Positions 3,620-29,958 of a DNA stretch of 64,000 nt are shown here, one piece after another. Numbering within the stretch: position 1 is the first letter of the stretch; each line of letters opens with the position of its first letter. Below the pieces are notes generated by a model, which did not search any database, was not told the origin of the DNA, and saw only the letters and a program-made list of their open reading frames with translations. The DNA comes from Escherichia coli (GTDB lineage Bacteria; Pseudomonadota; Gammaproteobacteria; Enterobacterales; Enterobacteriaceae), in the NCBI RefSeq assembly GCF_002854065.1, contig NZ_CP024154.1, one strand, 5' to 3'. The translations under genes and the position numbers were made by a program.

Positions 3620-3945
3620 CTCCGCTTTACCCGGCCATGCGGGGCATGGCCTTGTGGGTTTTCAGTTATGTGGCCTCAGCGCCGTGTGCGGGCTGTGCCG
3701 TGCCTCCATCGTAGCCGGGCTTCTGCGGGCGGGTTGCAAGGTAAGGTGAACCGCTGCGGTCACCCGGTCCCTCCTTCCCGTCTGCCGTGATTTTCCGGTC
3801 GTTCACCCGCTCAGATTTCGCGGTCTCACCCTTCAACTCCCGTCAGCCGTGCGCGTCAGGCTGCGGCTTCCCTTGCGCCCTTGCAACCCTGCAGGCCCGG
3901 CAAAGATGGAGGCACGGCACCGCCCGGTGTCGCGGAATATGTGAA
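3620..3945 (+). repeat. repeat family A copy 1: about 330-bp hairpin-rich element, putative single-strand promoter (Frpo/ssi-like)
   Basis: About 95 percent identical to 10567-10892; contains perfect hairpin GGCCATGC-GGG-GCATGGCC; ends about 20 nt before the klcA start. Confidence 0.6.
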
Positions 3946-5248: not shown

Positions 5249-5745
5249 CTTCGGCTCCCGGCTGCCTGGCGGCATCCGGTCGTCAGGCCCGACTCCGACG
5301 GGCAGCTGCTGGCGCACCCGCCAGTCTCCGCCGAACCCGCTGGCGCGGTTTCGGGCTGCCGCTACGGTCCGATGCGTGAAAACCCGGCTTGCAGCGACCG
5401 TTCCGGTCGCGCCGCCCCTGTCGCGCCGTGACCTGCGCTCCCTGCACACCTGACGGTGTGTGAGGAAACTGCGCCTGATGGCGCAGCAGTCCTCCCTCCT
5501 GCCGCCACTCCTGCGGCCTGTTTCCCGCTGTGGACTTTCCGGGGGGCAGACGTAACCCCCTCCCGTTCCATCTGTCCAGGGTGAGATGCACCGGCCACAA
5601 AATTTTTAGCCATGAACCCGGCAAAAAATTTTGCGTCCGCCCCCGGACAGCTGCCCCGTGAGGCGGTAAACGGGCCCCCATCGGAAAGGTCCACTGCGGG
5701 GAGAAACCCCTGTGAAGTGGACGGCAGGAGGAGCTTTCGCTCCTC
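5249..5745 (+). repeat. repeat family B copy 1: about 500-bp hairpin-rich element, putative single-strand promoter/ssi
   Basis: Near-identical to 11592-12090 and partially to 14681-15010; multiple perfect hairpins (GCGACCG-TTC-CGGTCGC, ACACC-TGAC-GGTGT); ends about 70 nt before ssb. Confidence 0.6.
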
Positions 5746-5814
5746 TGAAGGGGCACATGAACGTCCCGTCGCCGGTATCCGGTTTATCTCACATCTTTCA
5801 GTCAGGAGGTTCTT

Positions 5815-10566: not shown

Positions 10567-10892
10567 CTCCGCTTTTACCCGGCCATGCGGGGCATGGCCT
10601 TGTGGGTTTTCAGTTATGTGGCCGCCGTGTCGTGTGCGGGCTGTGCCGTGCCTCCATCGTAGCCGGGCTTCTGCGGGCGGGATGCAAGGTAAGATGAACC
10701 GCTGCGGTCACCCGGTCCCTCCTTCCCGTCTGCCGTGATTTTCCGGTCGTTCACCCGCTCAGATTTCGCGGTCTCACCCTCCAACTCCCGTCAGCCGTGC
10801 GCGTCGGGCTGCGGCTTTCCTTGCGCCCTTGCATCCCTGCAGGCCCGGCAAAGATGGAGGCACGGCACCGCCCGGTGTCGCAGAACATGTGA
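10567..10892 (+). repeat. repeat family A copy 2, putative single-strand promoter
   Basis: About 95 percent identical to 3620-3945; ends immediately upstream of the ardA SD. Confidence 0.6.
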
Positions 10893-11591: not shown

Positions 11592-12090
11592 CTTCGGCTC
11601 CCGGCTGCCTGGCGGCATCCGGTCGTCAGGCCCGACTCCGACAGGCAGCTGCTGGCGCACCCGCCAGTCTCCGCCGAACCCGCTGGCGCGGTTTCGGGCT
11701 GCCGCTACGGTCCGATGTCTGAAAAACCAGGCTTGCAGCGACCGTTCCGGTCGCGCCGCCCCTGTCGCGCCGGAAACGGCGCTCCCTGCACACCTGACGG
11801 TGTGTAAGGCCACTGCGCCTGATGGCGCAGTTGTCTGCCCTTCCGCCGCCCCCCCTGCGGCCTGTTTCCCCGCTGTGGACTTTCCGGGGGCTGAAGCGGC
11901 CACAACACGTTTCAGCCGTCCAGGGGAGAGATGTACCAGCCACAAAACTTTTTGCCGCAGGCGTCAAAAACTTTTGCGTCTGCCCCCGGACAACTGCCCC
12001 GTGCCGTGGCAGTCGCTGCCCTATCGGAAAGGTCCACTGCGGGGAGAAACCCCGAAGAAGTGGACGGCAGAAGGGGCTTTCGCCCCTCCG
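11592..12090 (+). repeat. repeat family B copy 2, putative single-strand promoter
   Basis: Near-identical to 5249-5745; ends about 50 nt before ORF 12143. Confidence 0.6.
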
Positions 12091-12142
12091 GGGGAGCAAC
12101 CGGTCGGCCCGGCGACCTGATTCAGCAGAAGGAGACGTTTTC

Positions 12143-12577
12143 ATGACAGTCAGCAGCACGATTTCCGTTTTTTGCCGCGACGGGGTGTTCCGTACCGTTT
12201 ACTGCCACCTGCACGGTGAGCCGACCTGGAACGGTCGCATCCTGCATACCCACTATGCCACTGGTCAGCAGGCCGAAGCCCTGGTTGAACACGGTGATAT
12301 CCGTTGCCTCGGTCCCCGTTGCGACAAACCCGCCGGGCATACGCTTCAGAACCCGGTGGACGGTGTGACGGCTTATTACGGACGTGACAGTGGTTTCCGG
12401 ATGGACAGTGAGGCGCGTGAGTACCGTTCTTTCAGGGAGGCCATCGCCACGGAAAGCACTGAAGAGGTGCGCTTCCATTATGTGTTCATCGACGGCTACT
12501 GGAAGGTGATGTACCGCACGCCGGAAGGCTGGAAGATGAAGTCGCTTGCGCTGGCACTGCGCCGCTGTCCGAAATGA
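12143..12577 (+). CDS. hypothetical protein (144 aa) directly downstream of repeat B2
   Basis: SD AAGGAG 7 nt upstream of ATG; Cys/His-containing; rho-independent terminator hairpin downstream (about 12579-12606). Confidence 0.55.
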   Translation: MTVSSTISVFCRDGVFRTVYCHLHGEPTWNGRILHTHYATGQQAEALVEHGDIRCLGPRCDKPAGHTLQNPVDGVTAYYGRDSGFRMDSEAREYRSFREAIATESTEEVRFHYVFIDGYWKVMYRTPEGWKMKSLALALRRCPK

Positions 12578-12669: not shown

Positions 12670-12936
12670 GTGAGACCATCAATTATCTTTGCAACGGCTG
12701 AATATGTAAAGCGTCTGCGTGAAGAGTGCCTGCGGGAGAATAAACCCCTGCACCGCCATACCCGCTTCAGACGTCAGGAGCTGGCACAGGATGAGATTAA
12801 CCCGGACGTCCTGGCGATGAGCAGTCATATCGCCAGACGCTGCAGTAAGCAGAAGCGGGTGCGTATCCCCGCGATGAAAGCCAGCGAATGGGGCCACCTG
12901 CTCCGCGCGCTTGAAATTGAGCGGGTCTGCCACTGA
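12670..12936 (+). CDS. hypothetical small basic protein (88 aa, GTG start)
   Basis: ORF only; Arg/Lys-rich. Confidence 0.3.
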   Translation: MRPSIIFATAEYVKRLREECLRENKPLHRHTRFRRQELAQDEINPDVLAMSSHIARRCSKQKRVRIPAMKASEWGHLLRALEIERVCH

Positions 12937-13000
12937 TTAACCCTTGCCGTCTGCCTGTGCAGGCGGCAGGATACGTTCAGACATCTCACCAGGAGGAACC

Positions 13001-13951
13001 GTGAGTAAGAAGAAAAACACCACAACGCCCACGCCGCATGATGCCGCGTTCCGGTCGTTCCTGGCGAATCCCGACGTTGCCAGGGATTTTCTGGAACTGC
13101 ATCTTCCTGCGGAGCACCGGCAGTTGTGCGACCTGTCCACGCTGAAGCTGGAACCCGCCACCTTTGTTGAGCCGGACCTGCATCAGTACGCCAGCGATAT
13201 CCTCTGGAGCGTGAAAACCACCGGGGGTGAAGATGGTTATGTTTATACGCTCATCGAGCACCAGAGCACAGAAAATCTGTACATGCCTTTTCGCATGTTA
13301 CGCTACAGTGTGGCGGCGATGCAGAGACATCTGGAGCAGCACAAAACGTTGCCACTGGTGATTCCGGTGCTGTTCTATCACGGTGAGCGCAGCCCGTACC
13401 CGTACAGCATGAACTGGCTGGACTGTTTTGAGAATCCGGCACTTGCGGCTAAAATATACACAAAGCCGTTTCCGCTGGTTGATATCACTGTCGTTGATGA
13501 CAATGAAATCATGAACCATCGCCGGATGGCCGCACTGACGCTGCTGATGAAGCATATCCGCCATCGTGACATGATGGAGCTGCTGGACAAACTCCCGCAG
13601 GTCATGGTGGAAATTTCAGATGAACAGGTGCGTGTTCTGATTCATTACATCGTTAACGCAGGGGACTCTGTATCACCGGAATTTATGCGGGCGCTGGCTG
13701 AGCGTCTGCCGCAGCATGAGGATAAACTGATGACTATCGCAGAACGTCTTGAGCAAAAAGGTCGCCAGGAAGGCAGGATGGAAGGACGCATGGAAGGACG
13801 CATGGAAGGACGCATGGAAGGACGCATGGAAGGAGCGCTTGAAAAAGCCCTGGCTATTGCGTGCCAGCTTCAGAAAATGGGGATGACGCCGGAGCAGATT
13901 AAGCAGGCTACCGGACTTTCCGATGACGAACTGAAGAACATCACTCACTGA
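13001..13951 (+). CDS. Rpn-family (YhgA-like, transposase_31) PD-(D/E)XK recombination-promoting nuclease
   Basis: N-terminal YhgA-like motifs (HDAAFRSF, ASDILW, YTLIEHQS); SD CAGGAGGA before GTG 13001; C-terminal tail carries (EGRM)n repeat; terminator hairpin at about 13963-13990. Confidence 0.75.
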   Translation: MSKKKNTTTPTPHDAAFRSFLANPDVARDFLELHLPAEHRQLCDLSTLKLEPATFVEPDLHQYASDILWSVKTTGGEDGYVYTLIEHQSTENLYMPFRMLRYSVAAMQRHLEQHKTLPLVIPVLFYHGERSPYPYSMNWLDCFENPALAAKIYTKPFPLVDITVVDDNEIMNHRRMAALTLLMKHIRHRDMMELLDKLPQVMVEISDEQVRVLIHYIVNAGDSVSPEFMRALAERLPQHEDKLMTIAERLEQKGRQEGRMEGRMEGRMEGRMEGRMEGALEKALAIACQLQKMGMTPEQIKQATGLSDDELKNITH

Positions 13952-14013
13952 TGAGAACCACAAAGCCCGGCAAAATGCCGGGTTTTTTTGTCAGCAGGAG
14001 CAGAGCAAACAGC

Positions 14014-14196
14014 ATGACGATTGCAGAACGTCTTATACAGAAAGGTTTCGACGAAGGTTTTAAGAAAGGTGCGCTTGAAGTGGCGCGGGAAGCAGCCTGC
14101 CGGCTGCGGGATATGGGCTGGACGCCGGAACGGATTCAGGAGGCAACCGGACTTTCCGGTGAAGAACTGAAAAAGCTGTTTCCTGATGAGCAGTAG
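14014..14196 (+). CDS. free-standing paralog of the Rpn C-terminal tail domain (60 aa)
   Basis: MTIAERLIQKG...TPERIQEATGLSGEELKKLF aligns with the Rpn tail MTIAERLEQKG...TPEQIKQATGLSDDELKNI; weak SD; hairpin terminator downstream. Confidence 0.45.
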   Translation: MTIAERLIQKGFDEGFKKGALEVAREAACRLRDMGWTPERIQEATGLSGEELKKLFPDEQ

Positions 14197-14226
14197 CCTG
14201 GCATTCTGCCAGGCTGTGAATCACGC

Positions 14227-14478
14227 TCACACATTCCCTGCCGTTTCCCCCAGTTCATTTTCCAGTCGCCTGATGATATCTGCCTTACGCATCCCCTGCA
14301 TGTGAGGCAGCAGGTCACGGACTGAAAGTGCCTGGGTGGTCCTCCAGACGGTGACATCCACCTGTTCCGCATTTTCCCAGGCGTGCCATGTTCTCTGTGT
14401 CACGCCAAATTCTCTGGCCGCTTTTTCGCGTGACCAGAGCATGCTTTTTCGCCAGATTCGCAGTTCCCAGCCGGTCAT
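14227..14478 (-). CDS. helix-turn-helix (XRE/Cro-like) transcriptional regulator (83 aa)
   Basis: HTH signature SREKAAREFGVTQRTWHAWE; AT-rich upstream region with GTGAA-N5-TTCAC inverted repeat. Confidence 0.55.
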   Translation of the reverse strand: MTGWELRIWRKSMLWSREKAAREFGVTQRTWHAWENAEQVDVTVWRTTQALSVRDLLPHMQGMRKADIIRRLENELGETAGNV

Positions 14479-14680
14479 AAAACACCTTTGAAAAAGTGAA
14501 AAAACTTCACTTTATTTTATCATCATAGTCACCAAGTCAGCGCGATAAATAAGAGTGAAAAAGTAAAGAAATTTCATTTTTTTTAGTTGTAGGTGTCGTG
14601 CTGTTTTCTCTGTTTTCACCTGTGCGGGAGTGGGCGTCAGTGACCACCACATGCCATTGTTGTGCCGTCGTTTTTCTTCA

Positions 14681-15010
14681 GTCGCGCCGGATGCGGCGCT
14701 CCCTGCACACCTGACGGTGTGTAAGGCCACTGCGCCTGATGGCGCAGCTGTCTCTGCCTGTCTGCCGCCGCACTGCGGCCTGTTCTCCGCAGACGGACTT
14801 TCCGGGGGTGCATACACGACCACATCCCGTTTCAGTCGTCCAGGGGAGAGATGTACCAGCCACAAAACTTTTTACCGCAGGCGTCAAAAACTTTTGCGTC
14901 TGCCCCCGGACAACTGCCCCGTGACGTGGTGAGCGTCCCCCGTCGGAAAGGTCCACTGCGGGGAAATCCCCGAAGACCCGGACGGCAGAAGGAGCTTCGC
15001 TCCTCCGGGA
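14681..15010 (+). repeat. repeat family B copy 3 (5'-truncated), putative single-strand promoter
   Basis: Matches the 3' two-thirds of copies B1/B2; ends about 45 nt before ORF 15057. Confidence 0.55.
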
Positions 15011-15056
15011 AATGACCTGGCTGACCCGGCAGTCGTGACGATGAGGAGACAATGTG

Positions 15057-15905
15057 ATGAATCAGACTTTACCCACTGCTGACCTGAATACTGCCGGCAC
15101 GACAGATGTTATTCTGTCTGTGGCTATCGACCGCATCATAGCGCAGCGTAACGAAGGTATTGCACTGTTCATGCAGGCGATGGAATGCCTGGCGACAGCG
15201 CGCAGGATTCTGCTCGATGCTTCCGGTGACATTTTTCTCTACGGGTTTGAAGACTGCGTGACTGACTCCGTTCGGTGCATGGATAAACCGGAAGAAGCAA
15301 AAAAGAATATCACCCGTCTTGCCGACCGGAAAATCTGGGATCGCCTGATGACGGATACTGGCATGTACACCTTCATGAGTTCATGCCAGCGTGATGAGTG
15401 GAACAGCCAGCTGATGAGCGACACCTGTCCTGAAATCACCCTGGACAATGTACTGGCAACTTTTCGCTATCTGAATGCCAGCAAGATGCGGACGTTTGAA
15501 CAGGGACTGATTGATGTCTGGCGGAAATTGTCATGGGATTACAGAACCAATAATCCCTGCCGTCTGGGCAAGAAAATCATTATTGAAAACCTGCTGTACC
15601 GCTGGAGTAACGGGCGTGTGACGCTGGACTGCAGCGGACGGGAGGCACTGGATGACCTGGTATGTCCGTTTTATCTACTGGAGGGACGCAACGTTCCTGA
15701 CTTCAGGAACAGCATCGGGGCGCAGTATGGTGAATATCTCGGGAACGGCGATAATGTCGGTAAGCTGTTAGAAGGGGAATATTTTACGGTGCGTGGCTAC
15801 CAGAAAGGGACCGTACACATTGTCTTTAAGCGTCCTGACCTTGTTGAAAAACTGAATGATATTATTGCACGGCATTATCCTGGTGCATTGCCGCCACGAG
15901 TCTGA
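15057..15905 (+). CDS. hypothetical protein (283 aa); oriT-proximal plus-strand gene of the leading region
   Basis: SD GAGGAG 7 nt upstream of ATG 15057; directly behind repeat B3; terminator hairpin at about 15911-15945. Confidence 0.55.
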   Translation: MNQTLPTADLNTAGTTDVILSVAIDRIIAQRNEGIALFMQAMECLATARRILLDASGDIFLYGFEDCVTDSVRCMDKPEEAKKNITRLADRKIWDRLMTDTGMYTFMSSCQRDEWNSQLMSDTCPEITLDNVLATFRYLNASKMRTFEQGLIDVWRKLSWDYRTNNPCRLGKKIIIENLLYRWSNGRVTLDCSGREALDDLVCPFYLLEGRNVPDFRNSIGAQYGEYLGNGDNVGKLLEGEYFTVRGYQKGTVHIVFKRPDLVEKLNDIIARHYPGALPPRV

Positions 15906-25810: not shown

Positions 25811-26083
25811 GCGATCCCAGGGAGAGTGGGTGGCTCTGGCCCGGAGGAAGTCTCTTTTCAACTAACGTTACCAGAATATCGTTATATTCACCTGATCGCA
25901 ATCTGTTCGTTACAGTCTATTGTTCCGGGAGTAGCGATATCGCCTGAAACAAGTATAATCAGCAAGTTAGCCTTGTCTGGAGACTTACCTTCGCATCAAT
26001 CCATTTGCCGTATTTTCGTAAAATTCAACAGGAAATATTCAACGGGAGTGAGAGAACTGCTGTCCGGGGAGGAGGTACAGACG

Positions 26084-26117
26084 CAAAAAAACCGACTGGT
26101 GAGGCCGGTTTTTTTGC
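26084..26117. terminator. bidirectional terminator-like hairpin (copy 2)
   Basis: AAAAAAACCG-ACTGGTGAG-GCCGGTTTTTTT, nearly identical to copy 1. Confidence 0.5.
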
Positions 26118-26431
26118 GATTCCGGATCGAAGTTGGTAGCCCTGACCGGAAGATAACTGCCTATAACTGACTATGAAATAATACGGCTGAAATAATATTT
26201 CTGCAAGCACAGTATAAGTATATACTCGGTGTGTCAGCTTTGAGGCACGTTCTTTCCGGCATATCGTTCACCGGGATGAACAGGTTGCAAGTCCTGGCCA
26301 AAACATCAGGTGGTGCTGGTTTTGGTGCTCTGGCCGGAGAAGAACTGTCTATAACTGACACTATAGAAAACGTGGCGACAGGCAATGTAAGGGCAAACCA
26401 CGGTGTTCTTTCTCCATTGATGGAGAAGCGG

Positions 26432-29483: not shown

Positions 29484-29664
29484 GATGTGTCCTTGTTTTT
29501 TATTATTTTGCATTTCAGAAAATAACACGATGCCTGCAGCCCGGAAAACAGATGTGTGCACACGTAGTCACTTTCCGGCTTTATTTCTGTCCCTGACACA
29601 AAATACGTGGTGGCATGAAAAGGATTGTGGCGGACAGGAAAACGATTAGAATAGCGGCGGGCGC

Positions 29665-29958
29665 TTGAGGCTGTATGCCGAAAGCGTTTTGTGGACGGCA
29701 TGTAGCAGAAAGCCCCAGGCGATTTTTTTATCAATCAACCCAGGGCCCACTGTAATGCCTCAACAACATTATAGTAGCCCGATGACGGCCGAAAGGCAAT
29801 GGAGGGGCTGCGATGCCACAACGAACGTTTTTAATGATGTTAATCGTCGTCTGTGTGACGATACTGTGTTTTGTCTGGATGGTGAGGGATTCGCTTTGCG
29901 GATTTCGTATCGAGCAGGGAAATACGGTGCTTGTGGCAACGTTAGCCTACGAAGTTAA
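29665..29958 (+). CDS. pndC: pndC (mok-like) overlapping leader reading frame of the pnd locus
   Basis: Reading frame that overlaps and ends inside pndA in a different frame, as in hok/mok loci. Confidence 0.5.
   Translation: MRLYAESVLWTACSRKPQAIFLSINPGPTVMPQQHYSSPMTAERQWRGCDATTNVFNDVNRRLCDDTVFCLDGEGFALRISYRAGKYGACGNVSLRS
29690..29780 (-). ncRNA. pndB: expected position of PndB (Sok-like) antisense RNA; not delimited from sequence
   Basis: Placed by analogy to hok/sok architecture only. Confidence 0.25.

Follow-up and report, generated by a model that had tools for sequence, protein, structure and literature searches.

The stretch of Escherichia coli DNA analyzed here, 64,000 nucleotides (nt) of contig NZ_CP024154.1 (hereafter the window), carries a gene of the Rpn nuclease family and, just downstream on the same strand, a short open reading frame (ORF) that resembles the tail of this nuclease standing alone. 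We conclude that the locus is very probably an RpnL/RpnS toxin–antitoxin (defense) module of the published Rpn family, together with one spare tail cassette (RpnSs). The locus rediscovers a known system: every feature that a first-stage reader of the raw sequence (the original prediction) had singled out is a documented hallmark of the family, and its guess at a toxin/antitoxin-type arrangement agrees, as far as sequence can tell, with the architecture described by Zhong et al. (PNAS 2023, PMC10400941). Beyond that 2023 paper, the additions are modest, namely a series of stacked cassettes in IncI-complex plasmids and a position in the leading region.

In this family, the Rpn nuclease (RpnL) is toxic alone and cleaves DNA, and the antitoxin RpnS is translated from an internal start in the rpn reading frame; by binding RpnL, RpnS blocks cleavage, and the size of the assembly fits an L2S2 tetramer. 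The tail is a three-helix bundle whose dimer interface is the long first helix. Four-residue repeats start 8–20 residues past the S methionine, and strains differ in how many they carry. One extra repeat, as in RpnC, abolishes protection unless it is carried by both partners; there is no cross-protection by RpnS between paralogues, nor between RpnC variants one repeat apart. RpnS also occurs as a separate downstream gene (RpnSs, e.g., ypaA) on chromosomes and plasmids, and such genes can disappear when they are deleted or become fused to the nuclease part (all Zhong et al. 2023, PMC10400941).

The nuclease gene, its internal start, and the EGRM repeat

The nuclease gene (rpnL, 13001–13951, plus strand, 316 amino acids [aa]) starts with a GTG codon four bases past a Shine-Dalgarno sequence, AGGAGG, read at 12991–12996, and its product is, by profile matches and homology, a Rpn (YhgA-like) PD-(D/E)XK nuclease and predicted toxin. 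The YhgA/Rpn motifs that had been noticed in this ORF were borne out by profile searches: residues 11–207 match Pfam Transposase_31 (YhgA-like, PF04754) with an E-value of 4e-78, and the protein scores 179 bits against TIGR01784, [quoted passage not shown] (cut-off 52.1). Since it remains below the cut-offs of the NCBIfam equivalog models RpnA and PRK09956 (320–333 bits vs. 583), it is a separate paralogue, and its identity to the E. coli K-12 paralogues is 53% for RpnA, 55% for RpnB, 44% for RpnC, and 49% for RpnE. PADLOC-DB 2.0 returned no Rpn match, which says nothing, since this release has no Rpn model.

Mutation of D11, D63, E82, or Q84 abolishes all activities of RpnA, and R94 is also listed (Kingston et al. 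2017, PMC5350276). The aligned residues of the window gene, D14, D66, E86, Q88, and R98, are all conserved, and we therefore predict an active nuclease, in answer to the concern of the original prediction that catalytic residues might prove missing on alignment. At one further position the plasmid protein departs from RpnA: the equivalent of RpnA D165, in the PDDE motif, is Asn168 (13502–13504), and the motif reads DDNE. Since the D165A mutant of RpnA is hyperactive and its toxicity greatly increased (Kingston et al. 2017, PMC5350276), the plasmid Rpn with N168 may be a naturally high-activity form.

Inside rpnL, a ribosome-binding site, GAGGA (13718–13722), precedes an in-frame ATG (13730–13732) by 7 nt, as the original prediction had pointed out. 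This ATG encodes Met244, which shares an alignment column with Met244 of RpnA, and the upstream GAGGA is conserved across all of the tail types described below. In RpnA, when the Met244 start and its ribosome-binding site were mutated, the small RpnA-S was lost (Zhong et al. 2023, PMC10400941). The predicted internal product, rpnS (13730–13951, plus strand, 73 aa), opens with MTIAERLEQKGRQ followed by five EGRM units, and homology to the RpnS of RpnA–E assigns it as antitoxin and dimerization domain. The helical character of this C-terminal part is shared with the family, in that the TIGR01784 match extends to residue 314 and the tail aligns with the RpnA–E tails; HTH_Rpn_C (PF27070) appears as a precomputed annotation on homologous Rpn products. 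All E. coli rpn genes have an internal transcription start (Zhong et al. 2023, PMC10400941), and a sigma-70-like site within rpn (TTGAGA-16-TAAAAT, 13428–13455, plus strand), recognized by its match to the consensus alone, is a candidate internal promoter for a short rpnS transcript.

The repeat (13769–13834, plus strand) starts at residue 14 of rpnS, inside the published window of 8–20 residues. A perfect 12-bp tandem repeat had been proposed here, and this holds for four of the five units: Tandem Repeats Finder reports a 12-bp unit in 4.8 copies with 100% matches over 13778–13834, and the unit at 13769–13780, GAAGGCAGGATG, is a synonymous variant that encodes EGRM with different codons. The copy number, which the original prediction had proposed to compare across related plasmids, is hypervariable. 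A query of 211 nt spanning the repeat found matches in 1,636 PLSDB plasmids, and in a rank-spread sample of 60 of these the matched spans were 211, 199, 187, 175, 163, and 151 nt, corresponding to five down to zero EGRM units. Just 30 records were at least 99% identical to the query, and the five-unit allele of the window is thus a minority form.

From these features and the published biochemistry, we propose that RpnL would act as a DNA endonuclease toxic on its own, that ribosomes would also initiate at the internal GAGGA/ATG to make the 73-aa RpnS, and that RpnS would pair, via its long first helix, with the identical tail of RpnL and so block cutting. The (EGRM)n repeat would lengthen this first helix, and repeat number would decide which S fits which L, such that gain or loss of a 12-bp unit could create new private specificities. 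Abortive infection-type phage defense, plasmid addiction, or both would be the likely role.

The free-standing tail and its stacked relatives

The downstream ORF (rpnSs, 14014–14196, plus strand) encodes a 60-aa free tail cassette with a single EGFK unit. It had been called a paralog of the tail without a nuclease domain, and the comparison agrees: it shares 60% protein identity with rpnS (72% at the DNA level over 122 nt), opens with the same MTIAERL, aligned with the internal start methionine, and matches the C-terminal 55 positions of TIGR01784 (E 9e-8). A Pfam-A scan of the 60 residues gave nothing significant, PF27070 being seen only in precomputed annotations. Between rpn and the free tail lies a GC-rich hairpin with a T-run (13962–13989, plus strand; 11-bp stem, z −2.9 by RNA folding), a putative intrinsic terminator or attenuator that shows compensatory changes in related plasmids, where a G·T pair becomes G-C and one extra G-C pair is gained. 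The NCBI/RefSeq annotation of an 81-aa form from ATG 13951 (13951–14196) was rejected, since it reads through this conserved hairpin; ATG 14014 was therefore taken as the start, and the 60-aa form is the likely product. Many database entries for the free tail protein are over-extended in the manner of the 81-aa annotation. At the 3′ side, a perfect 9-bp inverted repeat (14195–14215), present after every type D cassette (the class of this free tail, defined below), may serve as a shared terminator of rpnSs and the convergent gene that follows.

We then analyzed whether the free tail is maintained. Among 13 distinct free type D haplotypes, with the repeat left out, there were 12 synonymous and 8 nonsynonymous segregating sites, corresponding to an ω of ~0.21 (binomial p = 7e-4 against neutrality), and the in-frame type A tail gave the same picture, with 10 and 7 sites, respectively, and an ω of 0.20. 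An AlphaFold2 model of rpnSs (pLDDT 72.8) has one long helix (residues 3–33) and two short ones (38–45 and 49–55), and the Foldseek hit of top probability was 7TH0, the E. coli RpnA-S (probability 0.87, target-normalized TM-score 0.70), at an E-value of 1.2, which is not significant. Taken together, the low ω and the RpnS-like modeled fold make the free tail look like a maintained protein-coding gene.

Some sequence matches were set aside. With the free tail as query, phmmer gave apparently significant matches (E 4e-10) to designed repeat proteins and to the repeats of Legionella IcmE/DotG; these were taken as compositional, between helical repeats, and homology was rejected. When Rpn or the free tail was searched against the sequences of the Protein Data Bank (PDB), RpnA-S was not returned and the matches were only of low complexity; its IcmE/DotG and designed repeat protein matches were discarded as compositional.

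To place the free tail among its relatives, 70 related loci were retrieved and parsed, giving a census of 71 loci with that of the window. One nearly invariant nuclease domain is combined with at least four tail types: type A, with EGRM (the S of the window); types B and C, with GIQQ-like repeats; and type D, with EGFK (the free tail of the window). One-tail arrays, as in R621a and Shigella sonnei plasmids, have type D in frame and no free copy. Two-tail arrays have A, B, or C in frame followed by a free D, the window being A73 + D60 (type and length in residues), and three-tail arrays have B or C in frame, then a free A, then a free D. Type D is thus always last in the array, 30 nt from the convergent gene, and type A is found both in frame and free-standing. 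Every cassette opens with a conserved 21-nt box, ATGACNATNGC(A/C)GAACGTCTT, and types A–C have an identical 3′ junction of stop codon, hairpin, and GCCAGCAGGAGCAGAGCAAACAGCATG. Lengths vary within types as well: S alleles range from 49 to 73 aa and Ss alleles from 60 to 76 aa, and the free tail protein comes in sizes of 60, 64, 68, 72, and 76 residues, according to its number of EGFK units. Since in-frame repeat number shifts (e.g., C65, C69, and C77) while the A53 + D60 haplotype downstream stays identical, the in-frame tail appears to be the fastest-changing part. In three loci (L020, L037, and L045), the nuclease domain is split (212 + 87 aa) or mostly deleted and the tail ORFs are intact, a pattern expected when the toxin decays and the antitoxins persist.

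A chimeric query, consisting of the nuclease end joined to the free tail of the window, gave single-piece, full-length tblastn matches of 92–93% in PLSDB under annotated Rpn genes, with 264 records in the 90–95% identity band. In R621a-type plasmids, the tail type that stands free in the window is thus joined in frame to the same nuclease. In both R621a and the Shigella plasmids, the box at the head of the in-frame D tail is the form usual for in-frame cassettes (ACT ATC in R621a), which fits an origin by crossover within the box that deleted an A cassette. In addition, the plasmid of locus L051 carries an S×Ss hybrid, whose tail begins as type A and ends as type D. Two other searches added little in this respect: a representative library clustered at 50% identity, queried with the free tail, gave no full-length relative, such clustering hiding tail variation, and the chimeric query against an index of 5.8 billion proteins returned fragments only, with no full-length Rpn at all, which says nothing on fusions.

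We infer from these arrays that the free tail of the window is best read as a spare cassette of another type, which recombination can bring into frame. Recombination at the 21-nt box or within the tails would add cassettes, delete them, or fuse them to the nuclease, and a single such event would alter L and S at once. The free cassette would be kept as a working coding sequence whose expression is probably low, by read-through of the hairpin terminator. A stronger version, which we put forward tentatively and consider possible rather than probable, is that the free tails form a stack of spare specificity cassettes, in which recombination at the box would bring a stored tail into use or set aside the one in frame. 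The swap would switch toxin and antitoxin specificity in a single step that is never toxic, and the system would serve in competition among related plasmids or in escape from phage inhibitors of RpnS, firing on entry into a new cell because the operon sits behind a putative single-strand promoter (see below). If true, this would be a cassette-switching toxin–antitoxin system, of which the Rpn literature gives no description beyond the hint contained in the loss and fusion of Ss genes.

Several points weigh against the conclusion that the locus is an Rpn module with a maintained spare cassette. Toxicity, internal translation, neutralization, and defense are all taken over by homology from RpnA, RpnB, RpnC, and RpnP2, and the census loci, picked by their exact Ss protein variants, do not represent independent lineages. 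With a domain so small, the Foldseek E-values fall short of significance, and recent recombination with in-frame copies, instead of selection on the free copy, could account for part of the low ω. The free tail directly follows the hairpin terminator, and its AGGAG stands 13 nt from the ATG, a poor Shine-Dalgarno spacing, so expression of rpnSs may be very low. Finally, in the five sampled combinations of types A and D, the in-frame and free helix lengths are never equal, the gap in the window being 16 residues (four units).

This last point bears on whether the free tail could be a second antitoxin for its own RpnL, providing extra dosage, e.g., in a burst of expression after transfer. A shared fold (in the model), the 60% identity to RpnS, and purifying selection speak for it, as does the finding that the K-12 counterpart YpaA (RpnESs) is made as a protein (PMC10400941). 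However, one extra repeat abolished protection in RpnC (PMC10400941), and given this published rule the mismatch in length makes it unlikely that the free tail neutralizes its own RpnL; R621a-type plasmids, moreover, manage without any free copy. We therefore consider a second antitoxin an unlikely explanation.

We likewise give little credence to the idea that free tails are orphan immunity genes directed against RpnL with the same tail on competing IncI-complex plasmids, with the stack recording earlier alleles. Bacteriocin loci and those of contact-dependent inhibition, with their orphan immunity genes, provide a model for it by analogy. Type D does circulate in frame on R621a-type plasmids, as the 264 PLSDB records illustrate, type A occurs in both states, and the free cassettes are under purifying selection. 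RpnL is not known, however, to pass from cell to cell, so any benefit would need co-residence or displacement of related plasmids, and incompatibility and exclusion within the IncI complex limit this.

It is improbable, too, that the free tail is a decaying remnant of recombination with no present function, as might be suspected from the upstream terminator and the poor Shine-Dalgarno spacing, from the pseudogene annotation of the K-12 counterpart ypaA, from occasional frameshifted alleles (e.g., P0090), and from the plasmids that have no free tail. The ORF is intact in all 71 sampled loci carrying the free tail, neutrality is rejected by the segregating sites, and the start codon and 5′ box are conserved.

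Plasmid setting and neighboring genes

The record that best matches the window is an IncK2/Z plasmid (97.7% identity). The gene order runs ssb, parB-like, psiB, psiA, ardA, a 144-aa ORF, an 88-aa ORF, rpn, and the free tail, followed by a helix-turn-helix (HTH) gene on the opposite strand, a DUF4942 gene, a MobC-like gene on the opposite strand, nikA, and the relaxase gene. This order marks the leading region of an IncI-complex conjugative plasmid, as the original prediction had guessed, with rpn ~2.5 kb from oriT; the locus, flanked by ardA/psiB/ssb on one side and nikA on the other, shares a strand with ssb, psiB, and ardA, and is transcribed towards oriT. A 2.1-kb segment of the locus matched 2,038 PLSDB plasmids, of which 1,901 are typed as conjugative, and the locus was found in 1,378 of 5,426 complete E. 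coli genomes (25%), where it is almost always plasmid-borne. The same rpn locus is present on pESBL-EA11 (NC_018659.1; rpn at 66903–67817 and Ss at 67879–68085), the plasmid of a published transconjugant RNA-seq study (PMC12672017).

Two ORFs separate rpn from ardA, and both are kept upstream of rpn in related loci. The 144-aa ORF (12143–12577, plus strand) matches PHROG 1987, a family of unknown function; one RefSeq record names it "post-segregation killing protein PndC," a doubtful name, since NCBIfam gave no such match here. The 88-aa ORF (12670–12936, plus strand), directly upstream of rpn, had no family match in NCBIfam, PADLOC-DB, or PHROG profile searches.

A long repeat occurs in three copies (~5249–5771, 11592–12114, and 14681–14929) that are 80–97% identical. 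IncI plasmids are reported to have three Frpo-like single-strand promoters (ssi1–3) driving early leading-region operons, and the three copies fit these elements. The minus strand of 11700–12120, folded as single-stranded DNA, reaches −130 kcal/mol (z −7.7), and no terminator-like site was found on the plus strand between the middle copy and rpn. We infer that the middle copy (11592–12114, minus strand) is an ssi/Frpo-like element that would drive the 144-aa ORF, the 88-aa ORF, and rpn as one transcript, and early expression of rpn after transfer is possible in this way.

Such a setting lends some appeal to the original prediction that the free tail inhibits host Rpn-type nucleases, i.e., that it is an anti-defense decoy made early in the recipient, binding chromosomal RpnL and protecting the incoming plasmid. 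The locus lies close to oriT, leading regions are enriched in anti-defense genes and orphan antitoxins, and overexpressed Rpn nucleases raised RecA-independent recombination in conjugal matings (PMC5350276). The tail itself points elsewhere: it is only 32–41% identical to the tails of K-12 RpnA, B, C, E, and YpaA, compared with 60% to its neighbor; in complete E. coli genomes, 2,618 of the places that carry its DNA are on plasmids and only 30 on chromosomes; and R621a-type plasmids have type D in frame. In the published work, RpnS failed to protect against the RpnL of a paralogue or of a variant one repeat apart (PMC10400941), and the free tail sits behind a terminator, not directly past the single-strand promoter. 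We thus regard this part of the original prediction as very improbable.

That rpn is a transposase or recombination enzyme for processing plasmid DNA is scarcely credible, despite the old "putative transposase" annotation, the Pfam and PHROG names (Transposase_31 and "transposase"), and the RecA-independent recombination promoted by overexpressed RpnA (PMC5350276), since the family has no terminal inverted repeats, target duplications, or autonomous transposition (Zhong et al. 2023, PMC10400941), the gene occupies a single fixed position in ~2,000 plasmids, and it is dispensable, with alleles whose nuclease domain is split or deleted (L020 and L037).

The HTH gene (14227–14478, minus strand) is convergent with rpnSs and encodes an 83-aa XRE-type protein; the domain match is weak (Pfam HTH_31, E 1e-4; HTH_3, E 0.02; PHROG 6962) but agrees with the NCBI annotation. 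The palindromic AT-rich region that had been noted upstream of it contains a perfect 8-bp inverted repeat, AAAGTGAA-5-TTCACTTT (14493–14513), 15–35 nt upstream of the HTH start, with related half-sites at 14551–14570, and this arrangement suggests an operator-like site for autoregulation. In the sampled loci, the gene lies 30 nt past the last tail whatever the number of tails, and close homologues (at least 80% identity) occur in ~2,020 plasmids, co-extensive with the rpn locus. Distant homologues (~32% identity) reside in IncL/M pOXA-48-type plasmids in another context, with no Rpn gene nearby. Thus, of the claim that this gene completes the locus, the constant adjacency stands, and we consider the gene probably an autoregulated neighbor and not an established part of the module. 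In one pOXA-48-type plasmid (locus L076; NZ_CP039947.1, 22391–23219), the HTH homologue (32%) overlaps the start of a small "restriction endonuclease" gene and may form with it a different regulator–nuclease pair.

Several observations concern the rest of the window. A 300-nt direct repeat (97% identical) lies at 3626–3925, just upstream of a klcA-like antirestriction gene, and at 10574–10873, just upstream of ardA, matching the positions of the "class 2" single-strand promoters described upstream of klcA and ardA in pESBL (PMC12672017). The DUF4942 protein (15054–15905) is encoded by the first gene past the oriT-proximal ssi element; its PHROG matches include a family annotated as DNA methyltransferase (E 3e-19), and its gene is split or frameshifted in several related plasmids. 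Elsewhere on the plasmid, Rfam matches above the gathering score to the sok antitoxin RNA (124.7 bits, 29659–29815) and to an AgrB-type antisense RNA (47.7 bits, 26083–26170) represent type I toxin–antitoxin loci.

Significance and comparison with known systems

The analysis shows a subtle, recently published gene-within-a-gene architecture to be recoverable from raw sequence by a first-stage reader. It places an Rpn module on IncI-complex resistance plasmids found in about one-quarter of complete E. coli genomes, within the first kilobases that enter a recipient, and a toxic nuclease in this position could bear on plasmid establishment, on plasmid–plasmid competition, and on the phage resistance of carriers. 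The allelic series, with one to three tails, in-frame and free forms, hybrids, and zero to five repeats, amounts to a natural set of constructs that could address two questions of the 2023 paper, namely the role of RpnSs and the origin of tail diversity.

With K-12 RpnA, RpnB, and RpnC, the window gene shares domain architecture, catalytic residues, and the aligned internal-start methionine, and its tail is likewise predicted to be a three-helix domain with four-residue repeats near the N terminus; in contrast to these, it is plasmid-borne in a conjugative leading region and has Asn at the position of RpnA D165. RpnE–YpaA (RpnESs) and RpnC–RpnCSs come closer, with a same-strand, tail-only gene directly downstream and variation in four-residue repeats. 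Published Ss proteins, however, each group with the S of the gene just upstream, a pattern suggestive of local duplication, whereas the Ss of the window is a distinct type with 60% identity to S; unlike the published ones, a free tail of this type serves in frame elsewhere and can be one of two stacked free cassettes.

RpnP2LS of ECOR13 is a plasmid-encoded RpnL/S pair, as is predicted for the window; RpnP2L alone is strongly toxic, and T-even phages are countered by the pair, for which alone protection against phage has been shown (Zhong et al. 2023, PMC10400941). Identity or close kinship of RpnP2 with the window gene is plausible, given that the locus is found in 25% of E. coli genomes.

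Outside the family, two systems offer parallels. The cdiA/rhs loci combine a constant N-terminal part with a variable C-terminal specificity part, and spare cassettes stacked downstream are swapped in at a short junction. By analogy, these orphan cassettes resemble the Rpn tails in their stacking and in the recombination proposed at a short conserved junction, but the Rpn cassette would be an antitoxin and dimerization tail, not the toxic tip, the toxin is intracellular, and there is no sequence relationship. In EcoR124I and EcoR124II, the number of four-residue helix repeats (TAEL) in HsdS alters the specificity of a DNA enzyme, a parallel cited by Zhong et al. (PMC10400941); there, the repeat sets the spacing of DNA recognition, whereas in Rpn it would set the pairing between proteins.

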